From positions 125 through 64,124 of the forward strand of contig JBJXFR010000071.1 in NCBI GenBank assembly GCA_046155785.1: a stretch of DNA of 64,000 bases. The letters are read 5' to 3'. The position numbers were made by a program, and so were the translations under genes. This stretch comes from Blastocatellia bacterium (GTDB lineage Bacteria; Acidobacteriota; Blastocatellia; RBC074). The notes beneath the pieces are model-generated. The model did no database searches, had not been told where the DNA came from, and saw only the letters and a program-made list of their open reading frames with translations. This document shows positions 9,301 through 46,389 of the stretch, piece after piece (position 1 is the first letter of the stretch; the number at the start of each line of letters is the position of its first letter).

Positions 9301-11142
9301 ATGAATCCGCAATCCGCAATCCGCAATCCGCAATCGTTAAAAGCGCAGCTCTTTTTCAGTTCCGCCCTGTTGACCAGCGCGTTGATCGCCTTAACGGCGT
9401 GGGTCATCAACTCTCAAGTCATTGGCCAGGTTCGCCAGCAAGTGCAGGCCGAAGTCGAAACATTGTTGCCGGTTTATGACGCCGTTTGGGCGGAGCACGC
9501 TCGACGATTGGCGACGATGGGAACGGCGATGGCCGATTCATCAATCGTCAAAGAAGTGTTTGGCAGCCCGGCGGCTTCGCGCGATCAACGAACTTTGCAT
9601 GAAATGGTTGCGGATGTTTGCGGCGACAACATTCAAGCGGATGATTTGGTTTTGGCCAGCGATGGAGGCGGGCAGGTGTTTTACACCGAACTGTGGGAAG
9701 GAATCGCGCCAGAACTTCGGCAGCTTGAAATTGCCCGGTCAGTCAGTGACAGCCAGCTACCAAACAAGGGCTTCACGATGATTGGCGGGCGGTTGTTTCA
9801 ACTGGTGTTGACGCCGTTGCTGACTCATTCCGGCAGCGCGGATTTCAACAACACGTTGGCGATCATTGGCATCGGCGAAGAAGTCAATCGCCGACAGGCC
9901 ACTGAAATCAAAGCCCGTTTGCACAGCGAAGTCGTCTTTCTGATCGAAGGCCAATTGCACACGTCGTCGCTGTCAGCAAAAAACGAACAAATTGCGTTTC
10001 AGGCAATCCAGGCGGGCAATTTCGCCGACGCTGCGCCGGGACGAACAATTGAAATCAATCTCAACGGCGAATTGTACCTGGCCTTTGCCCGGCCACTGAT
10101 GGATTTCGATGACAAGCCAATCGGCCAGGTGTTCATGCTGCGTTCGCTGGCCGGAGCCGGAAAATTGTTCGGGGCCATTTCCAATCGGCTGTTGGGGTTG
10201 TGGACGATGGCGATCATTGCCGCGTTGGGATTGAGTTACTTGATTGCCGGACGCATCTCTCGCCCGTTGGAAAAACTGGTCGTCAGCGCCAAGGAGTTGG
10301 GCCAGGGAAATTACGACGCCGTCGTGCCGACCGTTGCCGAAAGCGAAGTCGCTCAATTGGCTGCGGCCTTCGACCAGATGCGGCATTCGCTGCGTCAGAC
10401 TCAGGCGGCGCTGTTGAAAAACGAACGGCTGGCGACCATCGGCCAAATGGCTAGTTCGATCATTCACGATTTGCGAAACCCGCTGGCAACAATTTCGACC
10501 GCCGCCGAGGTGCTAAAAAACGAAGGCCTGTCGTTGGATCGTCGTCGGACAATGCTGGAAACGCAGTTGCGAGCCGCGACTCGCATGAACGCCATGCTGG
10601 GAGAGTTGCTGGAATTTTCGCGCGGCAATTACAAACTCAATTTGGATCAATTGCCGTTGGCGACGGTCGTCGAGCGTTCCCTTCAGGAATTAAACGGACG
10701 AGTTTCCTTTTCCGGGATTCAATTGCTGACCAATGTGCCCCCCGAAATTATGATCAACGCCGATGAAGAAAAGCTGGGGCGCGTGTTTGAAAATCTACTG
10801 ATCAATTCCTTGCAAGCCTTTCAGCAAGCGAACCAGCAAACCGGAACCATTCAAATTCTGGCTCAGTCAGAATCAGACGGGGTTCGAGTGGAAATTACAG
10901 ACAACGGCCCTGGCATTCCCGATGCGATTCTTGGCCGTTTGTTCGAGCCGTTTATCAGTTCCGGCAAACAAGGCGGAACCGGGTTGGGATTGGCAATTGC
11001 TCGCGGCATCGTTGAAGCTCACGGAGGAACCATAGGTCTGGCTGATTCCACCGCCGAAACAAACGGAGCGAATTTTGTGATTCAGTTACCCTCGGATTTA
11101 TCGCAAGGAGGTGTGAATGGCACGCAAAGTCTTGCTGGTTGA
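9301..11142 (+). CDS. Sensor histidine kinase (extracytoplasmic sensor, HAMP, HisKA, HATPase_c)
   Basis: Two TM helices flank a sensor region of about 290 aa. H-box is SSIIHDLRNPLATI. N box is ENLLINSLQA. G boxes are ITDNGPGIP and GGTGLGLAIARGIV. The upstream part of ORF 8971-11142 overlaps the previous gene and was rejected. Confidence 0.85.
   Translation: MNPQSAIRNPQSLKAQLFFSSALLTSALIALTAWVINSQVIGQVRQQVQAEVETLLPVYDAVWAEHARRLATMGTAMADSSIVKEVFGSPAASRDQRTLHEMVADVCGDNIQADDLVLASDGGGQVFYTELWEGIAPELRQLEIARSVSDSQLPNKGFTMIGGRLFQLVLTPLLTHSGSADFNNTLAIIGIGEEVNRRQATEIKARLHSEVVFLIEGQLHTSSLSAKNEQIAFQAIQAGNFADAAPGRTIEINLNGELYLAFARPLMDFDDKPIGQVFMLRSLAGAGKLFGAISNRLLGLWTMAIIAALGLSYLIAGRISRPLEKLVVSAKELGQGNYDAVVPTVAESEVAQLAAAFDQMRHSLRQTQAALLKNERLATIGQMASSIIHDLRNPLATISTAAEVLKNEGLSLDRRRTMLETQLRAATRMNAMLGELLEFSRGNYKLNLDQLPLATVVERSLQELNGRVSFSGIQLLTNVPPEIMINADEEKLGRVFENLLINSLQAFQQANQQTGTIQILAQSESDGVRVEITDNGPGIPDAILGRLFEPFISSGKQGGTGLGLAIARGIVEAHGGTIGLADSTAETNGANFVIQLPSDLSQGGVNGTQSLAG
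9304..9336 (+). repeat. Heptanucleotide tandem repeat (AATCCGC) x about 4.7, in frame at the 5' end of the kinase gene
   Basis: AATCCGCAATCCGCAATCCGCAATCCGCAATCG lies directly after ATG 9301 and encodes NPQSAIRNPQS. An identical 33-mer occurs in the coding strand at 37158-37190. Confidence 0.9.
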
Positions 11143-36509: not shown

Positions 36510-39500
36510 TTACTGCCGTGTAATCACTTCGTCCAGATTCAACATCAAGCTGGCCGTGGTCGCGTAAGCCGCAAGCTCAGCGCGATTCAGTTTTTCGTCA
36601 TTGCGCCGTTCGCCGACGGACAACAGCTTTTCAGCTTCCGTCGAATTGCGCGTGAAGTATTCCAACTGAGATTTCAGATTTCTGACCAGAGCTTTGATTT
36701 CCGCTTCGCTGGGCTGGCGCGAAGTCACTCGGCGAAAAGCCCAGACCAGTCGTTGTTCAGCGGTCGCGCCGCCTTCTTTCAACATCAATTCGGCCAGCAT
36801 TCTGGCGGCTTCGATGTAAGTCACATCGTTCATCAGGTTCAGCGATTGCAGCGGAGTATTCGTTCGCGTGTCGCGCACTGTGCAGAATTCGCGCGCCGAA
36901 GCGTCGAACACCTGCATCGTTGGCGACAGCACAGTGCGCTTCCAAAACGTATACAGGCTGCGCCGCCACAAGCCTTCGCCTTTGTCTGTGTTGTAGCCGG
37001 TCAAGCCGGAAAAAGCCATGTCTTTGTACAGGCCATCTGGTTGATAAGGTTTGACCGAAGCTCCGCCGAGTTTTTCAACCAGCAAACCGGAAACAGCCAG
37101 CGCTTGATCTCGAATCATTTCCGCCGACAGTCGAAAGCGCGGCGCTTGCGCCAGGAGCGATTGCGGATTGCGGATTGCGGATTGCGGATTCTGTTTTGAC
37201 GACTGCCGATAAGTCGCGCTCATCACGATGGTTTTCAGCAAGGCCTTCACATCCCAAGGCTGAATGATGAATGATGAATGATGAATATTTTTGTCGTCAG
37301 CTCGCCTTTCTTTCATCATTCCGCCTTCATCCTTCATCATTCCGTCGCGCAACACGACCGCCAGCCAATCCAGCAACTCCGGGTGGGACGGCAATTCGCC
37401 TTGTGCGCCGAAATCTTCGGACGTTTTTACCAATCCAGCGCCGAACAGCATTTGCCAAAACCGATTAACCGTCACGCGAGCAGTCAACGGATGTTCTTTG
37501 CTGACCAACCATTTAGCAAAGCCCAAACGATTGTTTGGCAAACCCGCAGCCATCGGTGGCAACACGGCGGGAACGGCTCGCTGAACCGTTTCGCCAGGAG
37601 CATCGTAAGCGCCTCGCCTGAGAATTTGCGCCGGACGCGGCTGCGGCAATTCCTGCATGACCATCAGCGGCGGCAAATCGTCCACGAACTTTTGCCGTTG
37701 AGCTTTCAGCTCAATCAGCTTTGATTGTGCTTGCTTCAAATCGTCGGGCGCGGCTGAATCAAGAAAAGCTCTGTGGAGTTTTGCGGCTTGAGCAGGTGAA
37801 CGTTTCTTAGTCGGAATCGCCGCGATAATCTCCAGTGAATCAGCGCAAGCCAGCACAGCGACTTCTTCTTCGTTTAACGTGCGGCTGTAAATTCTAACTT
37901 CATCAATCGCGCCGTTGAATCGAAACCGCGGGCCTCCGCCAGCGCCGATTTTCAGCGTGTTGCGGCTGCCGCCAAACAGCAGGAAGAAGTTCCGCTGAGT
38001 CCATTTCAGCCTGGCTTCGTGGCCGTTGACGAAAACTTTCAACCGATCTTCCCACTGCTTCAAACCGTCGAAGACGACGACGACGTGTTGCCATTGCCGT
38101 TGCGGCAATGGCTGCTCAGTTTCAACACGCAGCGCGTCTTCGCCCCAACGGAAAACCATATTGAAATGCAGCTTGCCGTTCAGGAAATACAACCCGTAAC
38201 CGTCAGCGCGAGGGACTCCGTTTTCAACTTCAGCCGGAGCGTCGCTGACTTTGGTCACGATTGATCCAGCAGATTCCGTTTCGGGATAAACCCACGCCGC
38301 AATGCTGAACCGTTCGCGGTAATCGCTGGACGTGGTTTTGTATCGAAGGTCGGCGTTCAATCCGCCATCGAAATACAGCTTGCCGTCGAAAGCAGTTCCC
38401 TGTCCCAACGGAGAAGCTACAAAACGAGGTTGGCCGTCTTTGAAGCCGCCTGGTTCGCCCATCTTGTCTTTGGTTTTGACGTCTTGCTGGTTGTGATGCG
38501 TGCGGTCGGAAGGCGTGAACACCGGCGTTTGGTTTTCATCAAACGGAATTCGCACGATCAGCTTTTCTGCGGGGAAGCCGCCGCTGCCGCCTGAAGGCGG
38601 AGCTACGAACGTCTTTTCCCAATCGCGCTGTTTGCCTGAAAATTTCTTTGCCAGTCGGTTGTAATCGTTTTCAGCCACAGCAATCTGTTGATCGAACTGT
38701 TTCAACTGCGCTTGCTGTTCGCGCGTAGGAGCGGCCATCACCGGCGGCGAATCGCCTTGATCGAACGAATGCCCGTCTTCGTCAATGCTGTTGAAGTAAG
38801 CCGACAGTTGGTAAAACTCTTTTTGCGACAGCGGATCGAATTTGTGGTTGTGGCAACGCGCGCATCCGAACGTCAGCCCCATAAACACAGTCGAAGTCGT
38901 ATCCACTCGGTCAACGACGTATTCGATTCGGTACTCTTCCGGCACGATTCCGCCTTCGGCGTTGATGCGGTGGTTGCGGTTGAACGCGGTGGCTATGCGC
39001 TGATCCAAACTGGGATTTGGCAACAAATCCCCGGCAAGCTGTTCGATCACAAATTCGTCAAACGGCTTGTTTTGGTTGAAAGCTTCGATCACCCAATCGC
39101 GCCAGCGCCAGGCCGAACGGTCGCCGTCAATTTGATAACCGTTCGTGTCGGCGTAACGCGCAGCGTCCAGCCAGCGAAAAGCCATTCGTTCGCCGTAACG
39201 CGACGAAGCCAACAAACGGTCAACGACTTTTTCATAAGCGTTCGGCGAAGCGTCATTGAGAAAATCATCAAGCTCTTTGGTCGTTGGCGGCAATCCGGTC
39301 AGATCAAACGAAACTCGGCGCAGCAAAGTCGCGCGGTCAGCTTCGGGCGAAGGCGACAAAGCTTCTGCTTCCAAACTGGCCAGAACAAAATAATCAATCG
39401 CGTTTTTCGGCCAGGCAGTGTTTTTGACTGCCGGCAACGCAGGCCGAGTCGGCGTGACAAATGACCAATGCTGTTGCCATCGCGCGCCTTGGCGAATCCA

Positions 39501-39884
39501 TTCGGCAAGCAATTCGATTTCGGCCTGGTTGAGTTTGCGCTCTGAATCGCTCGGCGGCATTCGCATGTTTTCGTCGGAGTGCTTGATGCGCTGAACCAGC
39601 AGGCTTTTTTCAGCATCGCCGGGAACGATGGCTCGGCGGCCTCGCCCAAGATCGGCAGTCGCGGCGGCTTCAGAATCCAATCGCAGCTTGATCTTCAAAT
39701 TCGCGGCGTCAGGGCCGTGGCAAGCCAAACATTTGTCCGAAAGAATCGGGCGAACGTCTCTGTTGAAATCAATCCGGCGAGCCGATTGCTGAACTGATTG
39801 TTGAGCCTGGCTGACCGGCTGCAAATACGCCGCGACGATAACCAACAGAACAAATGCTGTTGTGACTTTAAGCTTCAAGTTCAT
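36510..39884 (-). CDS. PSCyt1 / DUF1549 / LamG / DUF1553 multidomain protein
   Basis: N-terminal planctomycete-type cytochrome c motif CLACHGPD. DUF1549 (FDLTGLPPT, RLLASSRYGERMA), CARCHNHKFDP, a concanavalin/LamG-like middle region (AAWVYP..IDEVRIYSR), and DUF1553 (HPELLDWLA .. TYRQSS .. PRFRLSAEMIRD). Confidence 0.9.
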   Translation of the reverse strand: MNLKLKVTTAFVLLVIVAAYLQPVSQAQQSVQQSARRIDFNRDVRPILSDKCLACHGPDAANLKIKLRLDSEAAATADLGRGRRAIVPGDAEKSLLVQRIKHSDENMRMPPSDSERKLNQAEIELLAEWIRQGARWQQHWSFVTPTRPALPAVKNTAWPKNAIDYFVLASLEAEALSPSPEADRATLLRRVSFDLTGLPPTTKELDDFLNDASPNAYEKVVDRLLASSRYGERMAFRWLDAARYADTNGYQIDGDRSAWRWRDWVIEAFNQNKPFDEFVIEQLAGDLLPNPSLDQRIATAFNRNHRINAEGGIVPEEYRIEYVVDRVDTTSTVFMGLTFGCARCHNHKFDPLSQKEFYQLSAYFNSIDEDGHSFDQGDSPPVMAAPTREQQAQLKQFDQQIAVAENDYNRLAKKFSGKQRDWEKTFVAPPSGGSGGFPAEKLIVRIPFDENQTPVFTPSDRTHHNQQDVKTKDKMGEPGGFKDGQPRFVASPLGQGTAFDGKLYFDGGLNADLRYKTTSSDYRERFSIAAWVYPETESAGSIVTKVSDAPAEVENGVPRADGYGLYFLNGKLHFNMVFRWGEDALRVETEQPLPQRQWQHVVVVFDGLKQWEDRLKVFVNGHEARLKWTQRNFFLLFGGSRNTLKIGAGGGPRFRFNGAIDEVRIYSRTLNEEEVAVLACADSLEIIAAIPTKKRSPAQAAKLHRAFLDSAAPDDLKQAQSKLIELKAQRQKFVDDLPPLMVMQELPQPRPAQILRRGAYDAPGETVQRAVPAVLPPMAAGLPNNRLGFAKWLVSKEHPLTARVTVNRFWQMLFGAGLVKTSEDFGAQGELPSHPELLDWLAVVLRDGMMKDEGGMMKERRADDKNIHHSSFIIQPWDVKALLKTIVMSATYRQSSKQNPQSAIRNPQSLLAQAPRFRLSAEMIRDQALAVSGLLVEKLGGASVKPYQPDGLYKDMAFSGLTGYNTDKGEGLWRRSLYTFWKRTVLSPTMQVFDASAREFCTVRDTRTNTPLQSLNLMNDVTYIEAARMLAELMLKEGGATAEQRLVWAFRRVTSRQPSEAEIKALVRNLKSQLEYFTRNSTEAEKLLSVGERRNDEKLNRAELAAYATTASLMLNLDEVITRQ
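37158..37190 (-). repeat. Heptanucleotide tandem repeat (AATCCGC) x about 4.7 inside the DUF1553 region
   Basis: The coding strand is identical to 9304-9336 and is read in the same frame (NPQSAIRNPQS). Confidence 0.9.
37261..37343. repeat. Intragenic palindromic heptad-repeat element, in frame (about 28 codons)
   Basis: TGAATGA x3.7 (37261-37287) faces TTCATCATTCCGCCTTCATCCTTCATCATTC (37310-37341). It encodes MMKDEGGMMKERRADDKNIHHSSFIIQP between LLDWLAVVLRDG and WDVKALLKTIVMSATYRQSS. Confidence 0.7.
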
Positions 39885-41646: not shown

Positions 41647-42291
41647 TTAGTTGCGAGTGATGTTGACCGGCAAATGCGGCAACTTTTTGGTTTCGGCTTC
41701 CAGCTTTCCATCGCGGCCAAGTTCGATAGCGCGAATCAAAACGGCTTCGTCCTGAACTCCGGCCAGCACGTGGCCTGCGATGACGAAACTGGGAACCATC
41801 GTCACGCCGTAAGTCCGAGCGATCAACAAATCTTCATCAACTTCGTCGGCCATTCGGTTTTCTTTGAGCGCGGCTTCCAAATCAGACGGATTCAAGCCCG
41901 CTTGCCAGGCAATTTCTTTCAGCACAGCCAGTTCGCCAATGTCTTTGTCTTCAAGGAAAAAGGCTTTGAACAATCTTTGATGAAACGGCTCGAAACTGTG
42001 TCTGGCCTTAGCCCAGGCGACAGCTTCGTGCGCCAGCCGAGTCAGCGGCGCGCGCGAAGGCTGGTGAATTTCGACGCCCAAGCGTTCGGCCATTGGATAA
42101 ACAGAATTTTTCCAACCCGTGTTCGCGCGTTCGCCGCGAGGTTCAAATTTGGGCGGACCGGATTCGCGCAGTTGAAATGCTCTATGGACGATTTCAACGC
42201 CAGTCACAGCGGCAGCATTTTTGAGGGGAAACTCCCCAAGATAACAATACGGTCAGACGTAATCGGAAAAGACCTGAACAACAACAGGCAT
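41647..42291 (-). CDS. DsbA/FrnE-like thiol:disulfide oxidoreductase with in-frame TGA at the CxxC cysteine (candidate selenoprotein; pseudogene as alternative)
   Basis: The frame continues upstream of ORF 41647-42207: ATG 42291 (AAGGAG 7 nt upstream), PVVVQVFSDYV, TGA (42255-42253), PYCYLGEFPL... This matches the SDxxCPWCYxG signature of the DsbA family. Total length is 214 codons, a normal size. Confidence 0.6.
42221..42239 (-). promoter_or_regulatory. SECIS-like stem-loop downstream of the in-frame UGA
   Basis: mRNA UUGGGG-AGUUU-CCCC(UC)AA starts 14 nt after the UGA. The apical loop at +20 to +24 contains a G. Confidence 0.35.
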
Positions 42292-42394
42292 TGGCAAGCT
42301 CCTTTTGGTGAATGAATCGCGGCGTAGTATAAAAGCCCCCTACCGAACAACAAAATCATTCACGGCCAACGACGCCAAAAGGAGCAACAAACAA

Positions 42395-42649
42395 ATGCAA
42401 AATGGATATGCCGAAGAGGGTTATTCCGATTACGAACTGGATTTTTTCCAGGCCATTGACCTGAACACTGCGGCTGAACAGGCGATCTTTGACGCGCTGA
42501 TAGAAATCGGCGACGACCAGTATTACACCCTGTTTGAAGTCAACGTCCAGCACACCTGTGGACCGGCCAAAGTTCAGGTTTTCCCAGAACGCGCTGGCAC
42601 TTTGTACCGTTGCCTGAAGTGCGGTGTGGCCGGAGTCATCGGCGGATAA
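42395..42649 (+). CDS. Hypothetical small protein (84 aa) with C-terminal CxxC
   Basis: AAGGAG lies 9 nt upstream of ATG 42395. Acidic N-terminus. ..HTCGP..YRCLKCGVAG.. may be a zinc-ribbon-like tail. Confidence 0.5.
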   Translation: MQNGYAEEGYSDYELDFFQAIDLNTAAEQAIFDALIEIGDDQYYTLFEVNVQHTCGPAKVQVFPERAGTLYRCLKCGVAGVIGG

Positions 42650-42717: not shown

Positions 42718-42791
<74 letters not shown>

Positions 42792-42837: not shown

Positions 42838-43104
42838 CCATTCCTTGCCCTGCATTCGCAGGCGGTGTATAACCCGTCGCCGGTTACCAATTGGTCAAAC
42901 AAAATCATGAAACTCAACGGAATCTACTCCGTCTCTGAAATCAGACTCAGGGCTTAAATTTCCGCTCGCTCTGAGCCGGTTCAAGGTTTCATCACTCTAA
43001 TTGCTGACGATACTTTCAAAAAAATCTGCACAGGACTGACTGTGCCAACACCACTTTCACGAACGGCGTCAGCCGACGTGACAAATCACAATGGAGTATT
43101 CCCA

Positions 43105-44742
43105 GTGGAATATCGAAATTTCGCAAAAATTTTAGGACTGTCGCTGTTATTGCTGGCTGTCAGCCTTGCTGTGTGGACTCCGCGCCAATCGGCTCAAAGC
43201 GGCAAAGTTGCCGACTGGCTGACCGATGGCGGAGACATTGAACGCACCGGCTGGCAAAAGAACGAAACGATTCTTTCCACCGCCACAGCCAAAAACATGA
43301 AGCTGTTGTGGAAAACCAAACTCGACAACGAACCGCGCCAGATGCACAACCTGCTGCCGGTGTTGATCGCTGGCCGAGTCACCACCGACAAAGGGCCGAA
43401 AGAAATCGTGCTGGCTACCGGAGTCACGGACAATCTGTACGCAATGGATGCCGCCAACGGCGAATTGCTGTGGAAACATCACTTTGCGACCGATTGGACT
43501 CCGCCGCCGAACGGTCGCGGCGCAGGCATTCTTTGCCCCGGAGGCATAACCGCTACGCCGGTCATCGGTCCAGCAGGAACACCGGGCAAATACATCATTT
43601 ACGCTGCGGCTTGGGATGGAACCTTGCGCCGGTTGGATTTGGCCACAGGCAAGGAAATCAAACCTCCCGCCAAGTTCATGCCGCCCAACGGCAAACCTTA
43701 CGCGCTGAATCTGCGAAACAACGTGATTTACGTCCACACGGCGCAAGGCTGCGGCGGAAATCCGAACATGGTTTACATCTACGATCTGGCTACGGACAAA
43801 GTCGGTTCGTGGGGACCAGCAGGCGGAGGCATGTGGGGGCGCACCGGCGGAGCGATTGATTCCAAAGGCGTGATGTACACCGGCACAGGTGACGGCCCTT
43901 GGAATCCTGAAAACGGAATTTACGGCAACGGCATCATCGGCGTCGCTCAAGACCCGGTCACCAAAGCCGCCAAGTTGATGGATTATTACGGCCCGTCCAA
44001 CGCCGAATGGTTGTGGAAACGTGACCTGGATATGCAGGTCAGTTGCGCGATCTTCAAATTCAAAGGCAAAGAGTTGATGGTGGATTCAGGCAAAGAAGGC
44101 GTCATGTATCTGATGGACACTGAATCAATCGGCGGAGACGATCACCGCACACCGCTTTATCGCACGCCGCTGTTTTGCAACGAAGAAGTCAATTTCGCTT
44201 CGGCGGGAGTTTGGGGTTCGCTGGCAACCTGGGAAGACGCGAAAGGAACTCGATGGGTGCTGACGCCGTTCTGGGGGCCGAAACATTCCAAGTTCACCGT
44301 TCCAGTCCAAAATGGCGCGGTCAAATACGGCGCAGTTCTGGCTTTCAAAGTTGAAGAAAAAGCGGGCAAGTTCACGCTCGTTCCCGCCTGGATTTCGCGC
44401 GATATGAACCGCGCCGAACCGCCAGTCATTGCCAACGGAGTCATCTTCGCTTACGGCAGCGGCGAAGACACCGACCAAGCGGCCTTCGACATCGGGCTGG
44501 CTTATAACCACGATTCATCCTACCGCATCAAGAATTCCAAGAAAGCTGTGCTTTATGCGCTGGACGCTCAAACCGGCAAAGAGCTTTGGAATAGCGGCGA
44601 TGCGATTGCTTCGTGGAGTCATTGGGGCGGCTTGTCCGTCGCCAACGGCAAGGTCTACATCAATACATTTGACGGCTATCAATATTGCTTCGGCATCAAA
44701 TCCGGCGATCAAGCCGCGTCAGCCGCGAAAGGAGGCAAGTAA
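43105..44742 (+). CDS. Secreted PQQ-like beta-propeller repeat protein
   Basis: ORF 43042-44742 starts at GTG. I prefer GTG 43105 (GGAG 8 nt upstream, then a signal peptide). Repeated blades with ..[15 protein letters not shown].., ..[11 protein letters not shown].., ..[14 protein letters not shown].., ..[16 protein letters not shown]. Confidence 0.75.
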
Positions 44743-46389
44743 ATGAAAAAGCTTCTCTGCTTCTTTCTGGTCAGCTTTGCGCTGACTGTTTCAGCAAACG
44801 CGCAACGTGGCAACGTAGATTGGATGACCGACAACGCCGACGCGCAACGGTCTTCGTGGATCAGAGCCGATGGCAAAATTTCCACTGAGCAAATCGAAAA
44901 GAAAAAATCCGATAAGCCAAACGCTTTCCAGTTTTTGTGGAAGGCCAAAGTCAAAAACGCGCCGAAACAGTTGAACAACCTGATGCCGCCATCCACTCTG
45001 GATCGGCTGATTGGGTATCGCGGCTTTCGCATGCTGGGATTTTTCGGCGGCAGTTCCGACAACATCATCACCTATGACACTGATCTGGGCAGGTTGGAGT
45101 GGGAAAAACATCTGAAAACCAACACTCCGGCTTCGGCTGGAACGTGGGCTTGCCCGGGTGGAATGACCACGGGAGTCGCCAAGCCAATGTTGACGGCAAT
45201 TCCGCCGTCTCCAACCGCAGCGGCATCCGGTCCCGGTCGCAGCAATCCAGCCAAAAGCGCCGTTGGCGACGCCGGTCAAGGCGCAGTAACGTTGGCAAAT
45301 GTTCGCCCAAATCCTCCCGGCGGAGCAGCCCCAAACCCAATGCTGGTTCAACAGACTCGCGTCAATCCGGCGAATCCTCCGGGCGGACAGTTGGGAGCCG
45401 GGCCGTTTTTGGTTTACGCGCTGGCCAGCGACGGCATGCTGCATTCGCTGCATTTGTCGAACGGAGCCGATTACGAAGCTCCGACCAGATTCATTCCCGC
45501 CGGAGCCAACGCCAGCGGATTGGCAATCGTTGACCAGGTGGCCTATGTCGTCACTTCCGGCGCTTGCAACGGAACCGACAACGGCGTCTGGGCGCTCGAC
45601 CTGATTTCAAAACGGGTCAGCGTCTGGAAAGGTAACGTCGTCGGGTCGGCTGGCCCCAGCTTTGGCGGAGACGGAACTCTTTACGTTGCAACAGGAAGCG
45701 GCGGCGATTCGCCAAACTCAATCGTCGCGCTGGAAGCCAAAACGCTGAAATTGAAAGCTTCGTTTTCAGCCGGAGCAGAATTCGCCACAACGCCTGTGTT
45801 GTTCAGTCACGGCAGCAAAACTCTGATTGCCGCCGCAACCAAAGACGGCAAGATTCATTTGCTGGACGCCGCGAACTTGAGCGCCGGAGCGTTGTCGAGT
45901 TCCGCTTCAACTGGAAAAGAACTGGCTTCGGGCGCGTTGGCAAGCTGGCAGGATCGTAACGGCGTTCGCTGGATTCTGGCTTCGATTGTTGGTGTTTTGC
46001 CCGCGGGCTTCACCGGCAATGTCACCAAAGGCGCAGTCGTCGCCTGGAAACTGGTTGAGCAAGGCGGCAAGCCGACATTGCAACCGGGCTGGGCTTCGCC
46101 TGACCTGACCTCGCCGTTGACGCCGACGATCATAAACAACGTGGTTTTCGTCACTTCCAGCGGAGAGTTCCGCGCTTCGGACAAGACTCCGGCGGCAATG
46201 CGCGCGGCGCGTTCAGGCAAAGCGGTCGTTTACGCTTTGGACGGAGCCACCGGCAAGGAACTTTGGAACAGCGGAACGACGATCACATCGTTTGCTCACG
46301 GCGGAGCGATTTCCGGCGGAATGGGGCAGATTTATCTGACCACTTACGACGGGACGATCTACACTTTCGGTTTCCCGATGGAGCACTAA
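44743..46389 (+). CDS. Secreted PQQ-like beta-propeller repeat protein (paralog) with a Pro/Gly-rich insert
   Basis: The start abuts the previous stop. Signal peptide [20 protein letters not shown]. ..[16 protein letters not shown].., ..[16 protein letters not shown]. Confidence 0.8.

Follow-up and report, generated by a model that had tools for sequence, protein, structure and literature searches.

DsbA-like selenoproteins with a UxxC motif (COG2761, PF01323) were first described from nine Sargasso Sea metagenome sequences (Zhang, Fomenko & Gladyshev 2005; PMC1088965). They were reported from the genomes of Anaeromyxobacter, Desulfovibrio and Desulfotomaculum in 2006 (PMC1794560), numbered 45 genes from 41 organisms by a 2016 count (PMC5029168), and were entered in a 2026 review as "DsbA-like protein form 1, PF01323, UxxC" (PMC13188914); UxxC selenoproteins of the thioredoxin fold are, as a preliminary description of the present locus had assumed, an established class. 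Frequent and dynamic exchange of selenocysteine (Sec) and cysteine in bacterial thiol oxidoreductases has already been described (PMC1794560). Our literature search found no paper pairing Blastocatellia with selenocysteine.

The DNA analysed here is a 64,000-nucleotide stretch from a Blastocatellia bacterium (the window). Its minus strand carries, from 42291 to 41647, what we take with a probability of about 0.9 to be one intact gene for a 214-residue cytoplasmic DsbA/FrnE-type oxidoreductase in which a UGA codon is read as Sec. The frame translates as MPVVVQVFSDYV*PYCYLGEFPLKNAAAVTGVEIV... (over a longer stretch, MPVVVQVFSDYV*PYCYLGEFPLKNAAAVTGVEIVHRAF...NITRN*; asterisks are stops). Its 214 codons, closed by TAA, contain one internal stop, the TGA at 42255-42253, which falls on the CxxC motif's first Cys (UPYC). 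The preliminary description had placed this TGA at the nucleophilic Cys of a DsbA/FrnE-like CxxC, which the translation, the PF01323 match and the orthologs with Cys at the same codon bear out. The features of the locus are:

41647-42291, minus strand: complete coding sequence of the predicted DsbA/FrnE-like selenoprotein (214 codons plus TAA, Sec at codon 13), from the translation, PF01323, orthologs of 212-219 aa and the FrnE structure.

42299-42304, minus strand: Shine-Dalgarno sequence AAGGAG, 7 nt before the ATG, read from the sequence.

42289-42291, minus strand: ATG, the true start codon; full-length Cys orthologs begin MP(V/A/I)... here, and the ATG is shared by all TGA forms.

42253-42255, minus strand: in-frame UGA, predicted to be read as Sec, standing where CxxC has its N-terminal (nucleophilic) Cys; TGA in 10 other orthologs, Cys in about 60.

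42244-42246, minus strand: TGT, the resolving Cys16 of UPYC, sole Cys of the protein and Cys in all TGA forms.

42225-42237, minus strand: SECIS-like hairpin GGGGA-GUU-UCCCC, with a 5-bp stem that begins 15 nt after the UGA and a triloop opening G-U, from the RNAfold centroid.

42205-42207, minus strand: GTG, the gene callers' start in the ORF list, which lacks a Shine-Dalgarno sequence and is internal Val29, not a start.

With Cys in place of the stop, the protein matches the Pfam family DSBA (PF01323) at positions 2-190 of 191 (E = 6.7e-30), and its closest solved structures are FrnE of Deinococcus radiodurans (5CNW/5CP1, E = 1.2e-14) and also SCO1869 of Streptomyces. Residues 4-189 align to FrnE residues 13-215, with the stop opposite the first Cys of FrnE CPWC; in the family motif SDYxCPxCY, too, it sits exactly at the first Cys. 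A signal peptide is absent, and Cys16 is the only cysteine. Membership in the periplasmic DsbA group of the E. coli type was considered and rejected: the protein starts with MPVVVQVFSDYV at the first beta strand, has no leader, and carries UPYC, not CPHC. Judged by sequence, the predicted protein belongs to the cytoplasmic FrnE-type branch.

The program-made ORF list contains only a GTG-started piece of 186 aa (41647-42207), which lacks the active site, as the preliminary description had pointed out. Were the UGA a real stop, the product would be of this kind: a truncated DsbA-fold protein without a redox motif, started from GTG 42207 or later and preceded by a 12-codon leader or uORF. The ORF list and the public gene calls, at 186, 162 and 148 aa, are what one would expect in that case. 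The calls of those lengths in relatives begin at residues 29, 53 and 67, three different internal starts, and there is therefore no conserved alternative start. No Shine-Dalgarno-like sequence was seen before GTG 42207 in the sequence read, whereas ATG 42291 has a strong one, in agreement with what had been claimed for both sites. Most TGA-form orthologs have AAGGAG or AGGAG at the matching distance (GAGGGA in locus L007), and an ungapped comparison finds the remaining upstream 36 nt variable at 34 of 36 positions. Codons 1-28 retain SDYVxPYCYLGE and have a synonymous share like that of the remaining gene, and a product begun downstream would miss strand beta-1 and the start of the active-site helix, whereas the Pfam and FrnE alignments begin at residues 4-5. 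We give termination at the UGA a very small probability. In public collections the window gene and its relatives stand as "DsbA family" proteins of 148-197 aa whose N-terminus, with the active site, is cut off; the correct product of the misannotated gene would be a 214-aa selenoprotein.

A search of 5.8 billion proteins returned about 60 full-length orthologs of 212-219 aa, among which the restored length of 214 codons is as normal as had been supposed. Nearly all contain CPYC or CPFC (one has CPFS), and the full-length orthologs with a named source are from Blastocatellia or Acidobacteriota MAGs. A handful of protein matches are N-terminally truncated, and the DNA of all six that were examined (P0013, P0058, P0066, P0067, P0069 and P0073) shares the architecture of the window: a Shine-Dalgarno sequence, ATG, 12 codons, TGA at the Cys codon, and an intact frame. 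The active-site codon is Cys in the full-length orthologs and TGA in 10 other distinct orthologs, in the contexts FSDYV*PYC, FSDYV*PFC and FSDYT*PYC. Including the window, there are 11 distinct TGA forms, the other ten having 54-91% protein identity to it. Their sources are independent: Logan runs ERR13655531, SRR28962010 and SRR18313638, ENA ERZ27279688, and MAGs (GCA_975093895.1, GCA_035560235.1, JBGAPB01, JAGNMH01, JAXLQP01 and DASRDU01). A GTDB scan with one genome per species found 24 Blastocatellia orthologs, with TGA in 5 (JBGAPB01, JAGNMH01, JAXLQP01, DATMAG01 and DASRDU01) and TGC or TGT in 19; the closest GTDB DsbA match to the window is 87% identical. Since 19 of these 24 species-level orthologs use Cys, Sec is not required for function.

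These comparisons bear on whether the TGA is a lesion, either a nonsense mutation from TGC or TGT or a sequencing or assembly error in a Cys-type dsbA/frnE gene. A single base change would suffice, the Cys codons predominate at species level, and Sec machinery was not seen in the window. Against this, the identical TGA recurs in ten other distinct sequences from independent assemblies and different species; the ATG, the 12 upstream codons and the full downstream frame are intact in all of them, and no frameshift or second stop was found in any. The divergence of the TGA contigs also excludes a single contaminating template. Codon changes before and after the TGA show the coding pattern of the remaining gene: the synonymous share of codon differences among TGA forms is 0.47 in codons 1-12, 0.43 in codons 14-28 and 0.47 in codons 29-200, and the frame would therefore be read continuously across the UGA. 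A specific hairpin, described below, accompanies the TGA in every case. Given TGA in 10 other distinct orthologs, the position of the codon exceeds, on this sequence comparison, what chance would give. A lesion has a practically negligible probability, and the preliminary description was right to see no decay in the gene, which has the one internal stop.

A neighbour-joining tree places the TGA forms in at least three clades, with one Cys form, L011, lying inside the TGA clade of the window. In this gene (L011:6001-6642; CAZXZU010000257.1) TGA is replaced by TGC, and one synonymous substitution (CCC to CCG) alters the hairpin. The gene has the look of a recent conversion from Sec to Cys, with a putative SECIS that is beginning to decay.

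Counting the U of the UGA as 0, GGGG-A at positions 18-22 pairs with U-CCC(C) at 26-30 in 11/11 TGA forms, enclosing a loop of GUU, GGU or GG(C)U. A fixed-structure test found 5/5 pairs with G as first loop base in 11/11 TGA forms and 0/19 Cys forms, and the local MFE averages -9.2 kcal/mol in TGA forms versus -5.9 kcal/mol in Cys forms (Mann-Whitney p = 6e-5), a contrast of 11 with 19 that amounts to about three clades and not to 30 independent observations. TGA forms always have GGG GAG; most other Cys forms have GGC/GGA and GAA. The Cys forms L011 and L021 encode an identical LGEFPL, with the Pro codon CCG, not CCC, breaking the stem. The same peptide is thus compatible with a broken stem, and the constraint therefore appears to act on the RNA, not on the protein, and to be tied to the UGA. 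The preliminary description had proposed a foldable hairpin with a G in its loop after the UGA, and named an ortholog alignment as a check; the hairpin is recovered in the RNAfold centroid, and the alignment has Cys at the codon in some orthologs and TGA in others, with the hairpin accompanying the TGA forms only.

The geometry it had ascribed to a bacterial SECIS also holds: the loop G-U is at positions 23-24 in the window, within 1-2 nt of its position in E. coli fdhF, where the loop GGUC is at 21-24 (read from MG1655). A stem-loop within the coding sequence, shortly 3' of the UGA and with a G in a small apical loop, is how such elements have been recognized (PMC1088965), and one is found here; loss of the hairpin together with loss of the UGA is what selection for a SECIS would leave. 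The element is short (5 bp), with an energy of about -6.4 kcal/mol for the fixed stem-loop and -7.6 for the RNAfold centroid, and the lower stem beneath it is weak and variable. Taken whole, the 71-nt region has a folding energy typical of shuffled sequence (z = 0.16), so only the short hairpin is meaningful. An Rfam scan of 42150-42300 gave no match except noise (E > 1); Rfam's curated SECIS families are not expected to cover short, lineage-specific bacterial elements, and this negative result therefore weighs little. The stem bases double as codons for a conserved Gly-Glu-x-Pro, and because the stem is almost invariant (a single G-C to G-U change, in the L029/L030 pair), compensatory changes cannot be shown.

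TGA is the commonest stop in the window, where it ends 23 of 47 long non-overlapping ORFs, and being an ordinary stop there, it leaves no place for a reassigned code, which we rejected. As had been stated beforehand, the window carries no Sec machinery: ARAGORN and Rfam found only a tRNA-Met and no tRNA-Sec in the 64 kb, and tblastn with E. coli queries found no homologs of SelA, SelB or SelD. About 2.2 Mb of related loci likewise gave no SelA, SelB, SelD or tRNA-Sec with tblastn (E. coli proteins) and ARAGORN. A search that started from Aquifex SelD, its sequence reconstructed from a PDB alignment, returned Aquificota-like proteins for all of the best 120 matches, and Aquificaceae for the GTDB loci. 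Many of these Aquificaceae-related SelD proteins (P0160-P0225, loci L170-L183) have gene calls of 296-306 aa that lack about 35 N-terminal residues, as would fit a UGA-encoded Sec near the SelD N-terminus that cuts the gene call. Scans of the window for further TGA-interrupted genes gave many chance matches and no second convincing selenoprotein; a thymidine kinase and GlpX pair joined by a TGA proved to be merely two adjacent genes.

Two other genes of the lineage have a TGA at a catalytic Cys. One is a GrdB/PrdB-like gene (PF07355) with an in-frame TGA at LTGG*P(N/E/Q)VCHRT (LTGG*PNVCHRT in L009, L029 and L030). The best 80 GTDB loci (species representatives) for a probe with this gene are all from Blastocatellia or Acidobacteriota, 75 with TGA and 5 with Cys. 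The TGA carriers include the nearest species to the window (CADECP01, JANRKX01, CAZXZU01, JAEUQP01, JBGAPB01, CAYYDG01, CAZMXG01 and DAOMFR01), several of which have a Cys-form DsbA. The gene is found at L009:2390-3097, where it is called as a truncated 142-aa product, in L029 and L030, and in L090-L169 at about 10001-10705. Its hairpin, ACCGC...GCGGU, presents GGU at positions 23-25; a change of GCGGU to GCCGU breaks the stem in the 5 Cys forms. It has in common with the dsbA-like gene a GC-rich 5-bp hairpin with G-U about 20 nt downstream of the UGA; two unrelated genes obeying the same rule of UGA and hairpin is what a shared SelB would require. The other gene encodes a peroxiredoxin whose peroxidatic Cys codon is TGA (FYPLAWTPV*T; L009:1813-2277, L029:2816-3277 and L030:2864-3325). 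In these three loci the Sec-type dsbA has the peroxiredoxin and GrdB/PrdB-like genes 2-3 kb upstream of it, and the three putative selenoprotein genes are clustered within about 3.5 kb. The NCBI gene call for the TGA peroxiredoxin spans the TGA (154 aa) and is seemingly annotated as read through.

These genes weigh on the possibility that the UGA is read through without Sec, by a near-cognate tRNA-Trp or tRNA-Cys, the hairpin being a stimulator of readthrough or incidental. Such a process would accord with the window's unseen Sec machinery, with the small size of the hairpin, and with the functional Cys at this site in most orthologs. Trp at the nucleophilic position would, however, kill redox function, and inefficient decoding would not persist where TGC or TGT is reachable by simple mutation. 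The GrdB/PrdB-like and peroxiredoxin genes of the lineage have their TGA exactly at the catalytic Cys, the former shares the loop geometry, and the hairpin geometry matches that of the fdhF SECIS. We regard readthrough without Sec as very unlikely. The Blastocatellia lineage appears, from these genes, to decode Sec, and the organism of the window very likely does so; the UxxC selenoprotein reading of the preliminary description is supported by the ortholog, hairpin and coding-constraint comparisons alike.

Under the Sec reading, the UGA at 42255-42253 would be translated as Sec13. The hairpin at 42237-42225, inside the coding sequence and 15 nt past the UGA, would present its loop G-U to SelB, and SelB carrying Sec-tRNA(Sec) and GTP would bind it when the UGA comes up for decoding on the ribosome. 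The presence of selA, selB, selC and selD in the genome, the binding of SelB to the hairpin, and the incorporation of selenium are all parts of this model that we infer. In the protein, a selenolate would take the place of the cysteine thiolate as the attacking nucleophile of U13-P-Y-C16, and Sec13 would cycle with Cys16 via a selenenylsulfide in a cytoplasmic oxidoreductase/isomerase of the FrnE type.

The neighbours of the dsbA-like gene are a KDPG aldolase gene downstream and a small divergent ORF and tRNA-Met upstream, with no functional link given. The divergent ORF (42305-42649, plus strand) has a Cys-rich C-terminus (HTCGP...YRCLKCG), and its likely real start is internal, an ATG from which the product reads MQNGYAEEGYSDYELDFF...; in L001, L003, L004, L007 and L009 the corresponding position beside dsbA is taken by a gene of 79-84 aa that has no Pfam match. 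The tRNA-Met (CAT; 42718-42791, plus strand) is the only RNA gene that ARAGORN and Rfam report in the window. A TATACT (42326-42331, minus strand) lies within TTATACTAC, about 35 nt before the dsbA-like ATG; nearly all TGA-form orthologs retain it upstream of the gene, amid variable non-coding sequence, and it may be a -10 promoter element. Other neighbouring genes encode a 1124-aa protein (36510-39884, minus strand), by reading alone a putative cytochrome-c-domain protein of the DUF1549/DUF1553 (PSD1-like) kind, and two proteins of about 550 aa each, in tandem, that resemble PQQ-type beta-propellers (43042-46389, plus strand). A mix of PSD1-like and PQQ-type genes is typical of soil Acidobacteria and Planctomycetes, and these neighbours have no apparent link to selenoproteins.

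The window gene is thus predicted to join a selenoprotein family known since 2005, from a new lineage, and to add the soil Acidobacteria (Blastocatellia) to the users of a UxxC DsbA/FrnE-type selenoprotein. Sec and Cys would alternate among close relatives, with the SECIS hairpin decaying once Cys takes over; this alternation fits the known picture of exchange (PMC1794560) and opens no new question. A broader proposal is possible, and we lean somewhat against it: that Blastocatellia as a whole are an undescribed Sec-using lineage, that a 13-nt hairpin (5 bp and a G-U triloop) is a sufficient SECIS, and that near-identical species switch their DsbA/FrnE active site from Sec to Cys or back without losing the Sec machinery, the GrdB-like gene remaining TGA in the same genomes. 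If true, it would provide a natural series on selection for Sec over Cys (e.g. by selenium supply) and on the minimal size of a bacterial SECIS.

Among described systems, the predicted protein resembles DsbA-like selenoprotein form 1 in its Pfam domain, in a UxxC with Sec as the first Cys, in its widespread Cys homologs, and in a SECIS-like hairpin that follows the UGA directly and has G in its apical loop. The likeness is drawn from domain, motif and hairpin, and unlike the known members this one comes from the Blastocatellia (Acidobacteriota). FrnE of D. radiodurans (PDB 5CNW, 5CP1 and others) is a cytoplasmic DsbA-like disulfide oxidoreductase/isomerase whose C-P-W-C aligns to U13-P-Y-C16; both proteins lack a signal peptide and have a conserved (V/T)-P cis-proline loop. 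The window protein differs in its predicted Sec for the first Cys and in its length (214 versus 260 residues), and the aligned sequences are only distantly similar. FrnE carries an additional C-terminal Cys pair, whereas the window protein has no further pair, C16 being its single Cys. The GrdB/PrdB-like protein and the Sec-peroxiredoxin of the lineage share with the dsbA-like gene a TGA at the catalytic Cys; they have unrelated folds, and neither is in the window. The SECIS of E. coli fdhF likewise lies inside the coding sequence directly 3' of the UGA, with its G-U at 22-23 versus 23-24 here. There the stem-loop is longer, at about 40 nt, and is interrupted by internal bulges (-14.9 kcal/mol for 48 nt), whereas here just the 5-bp stem and triloop of the putative SECIS are conserved.
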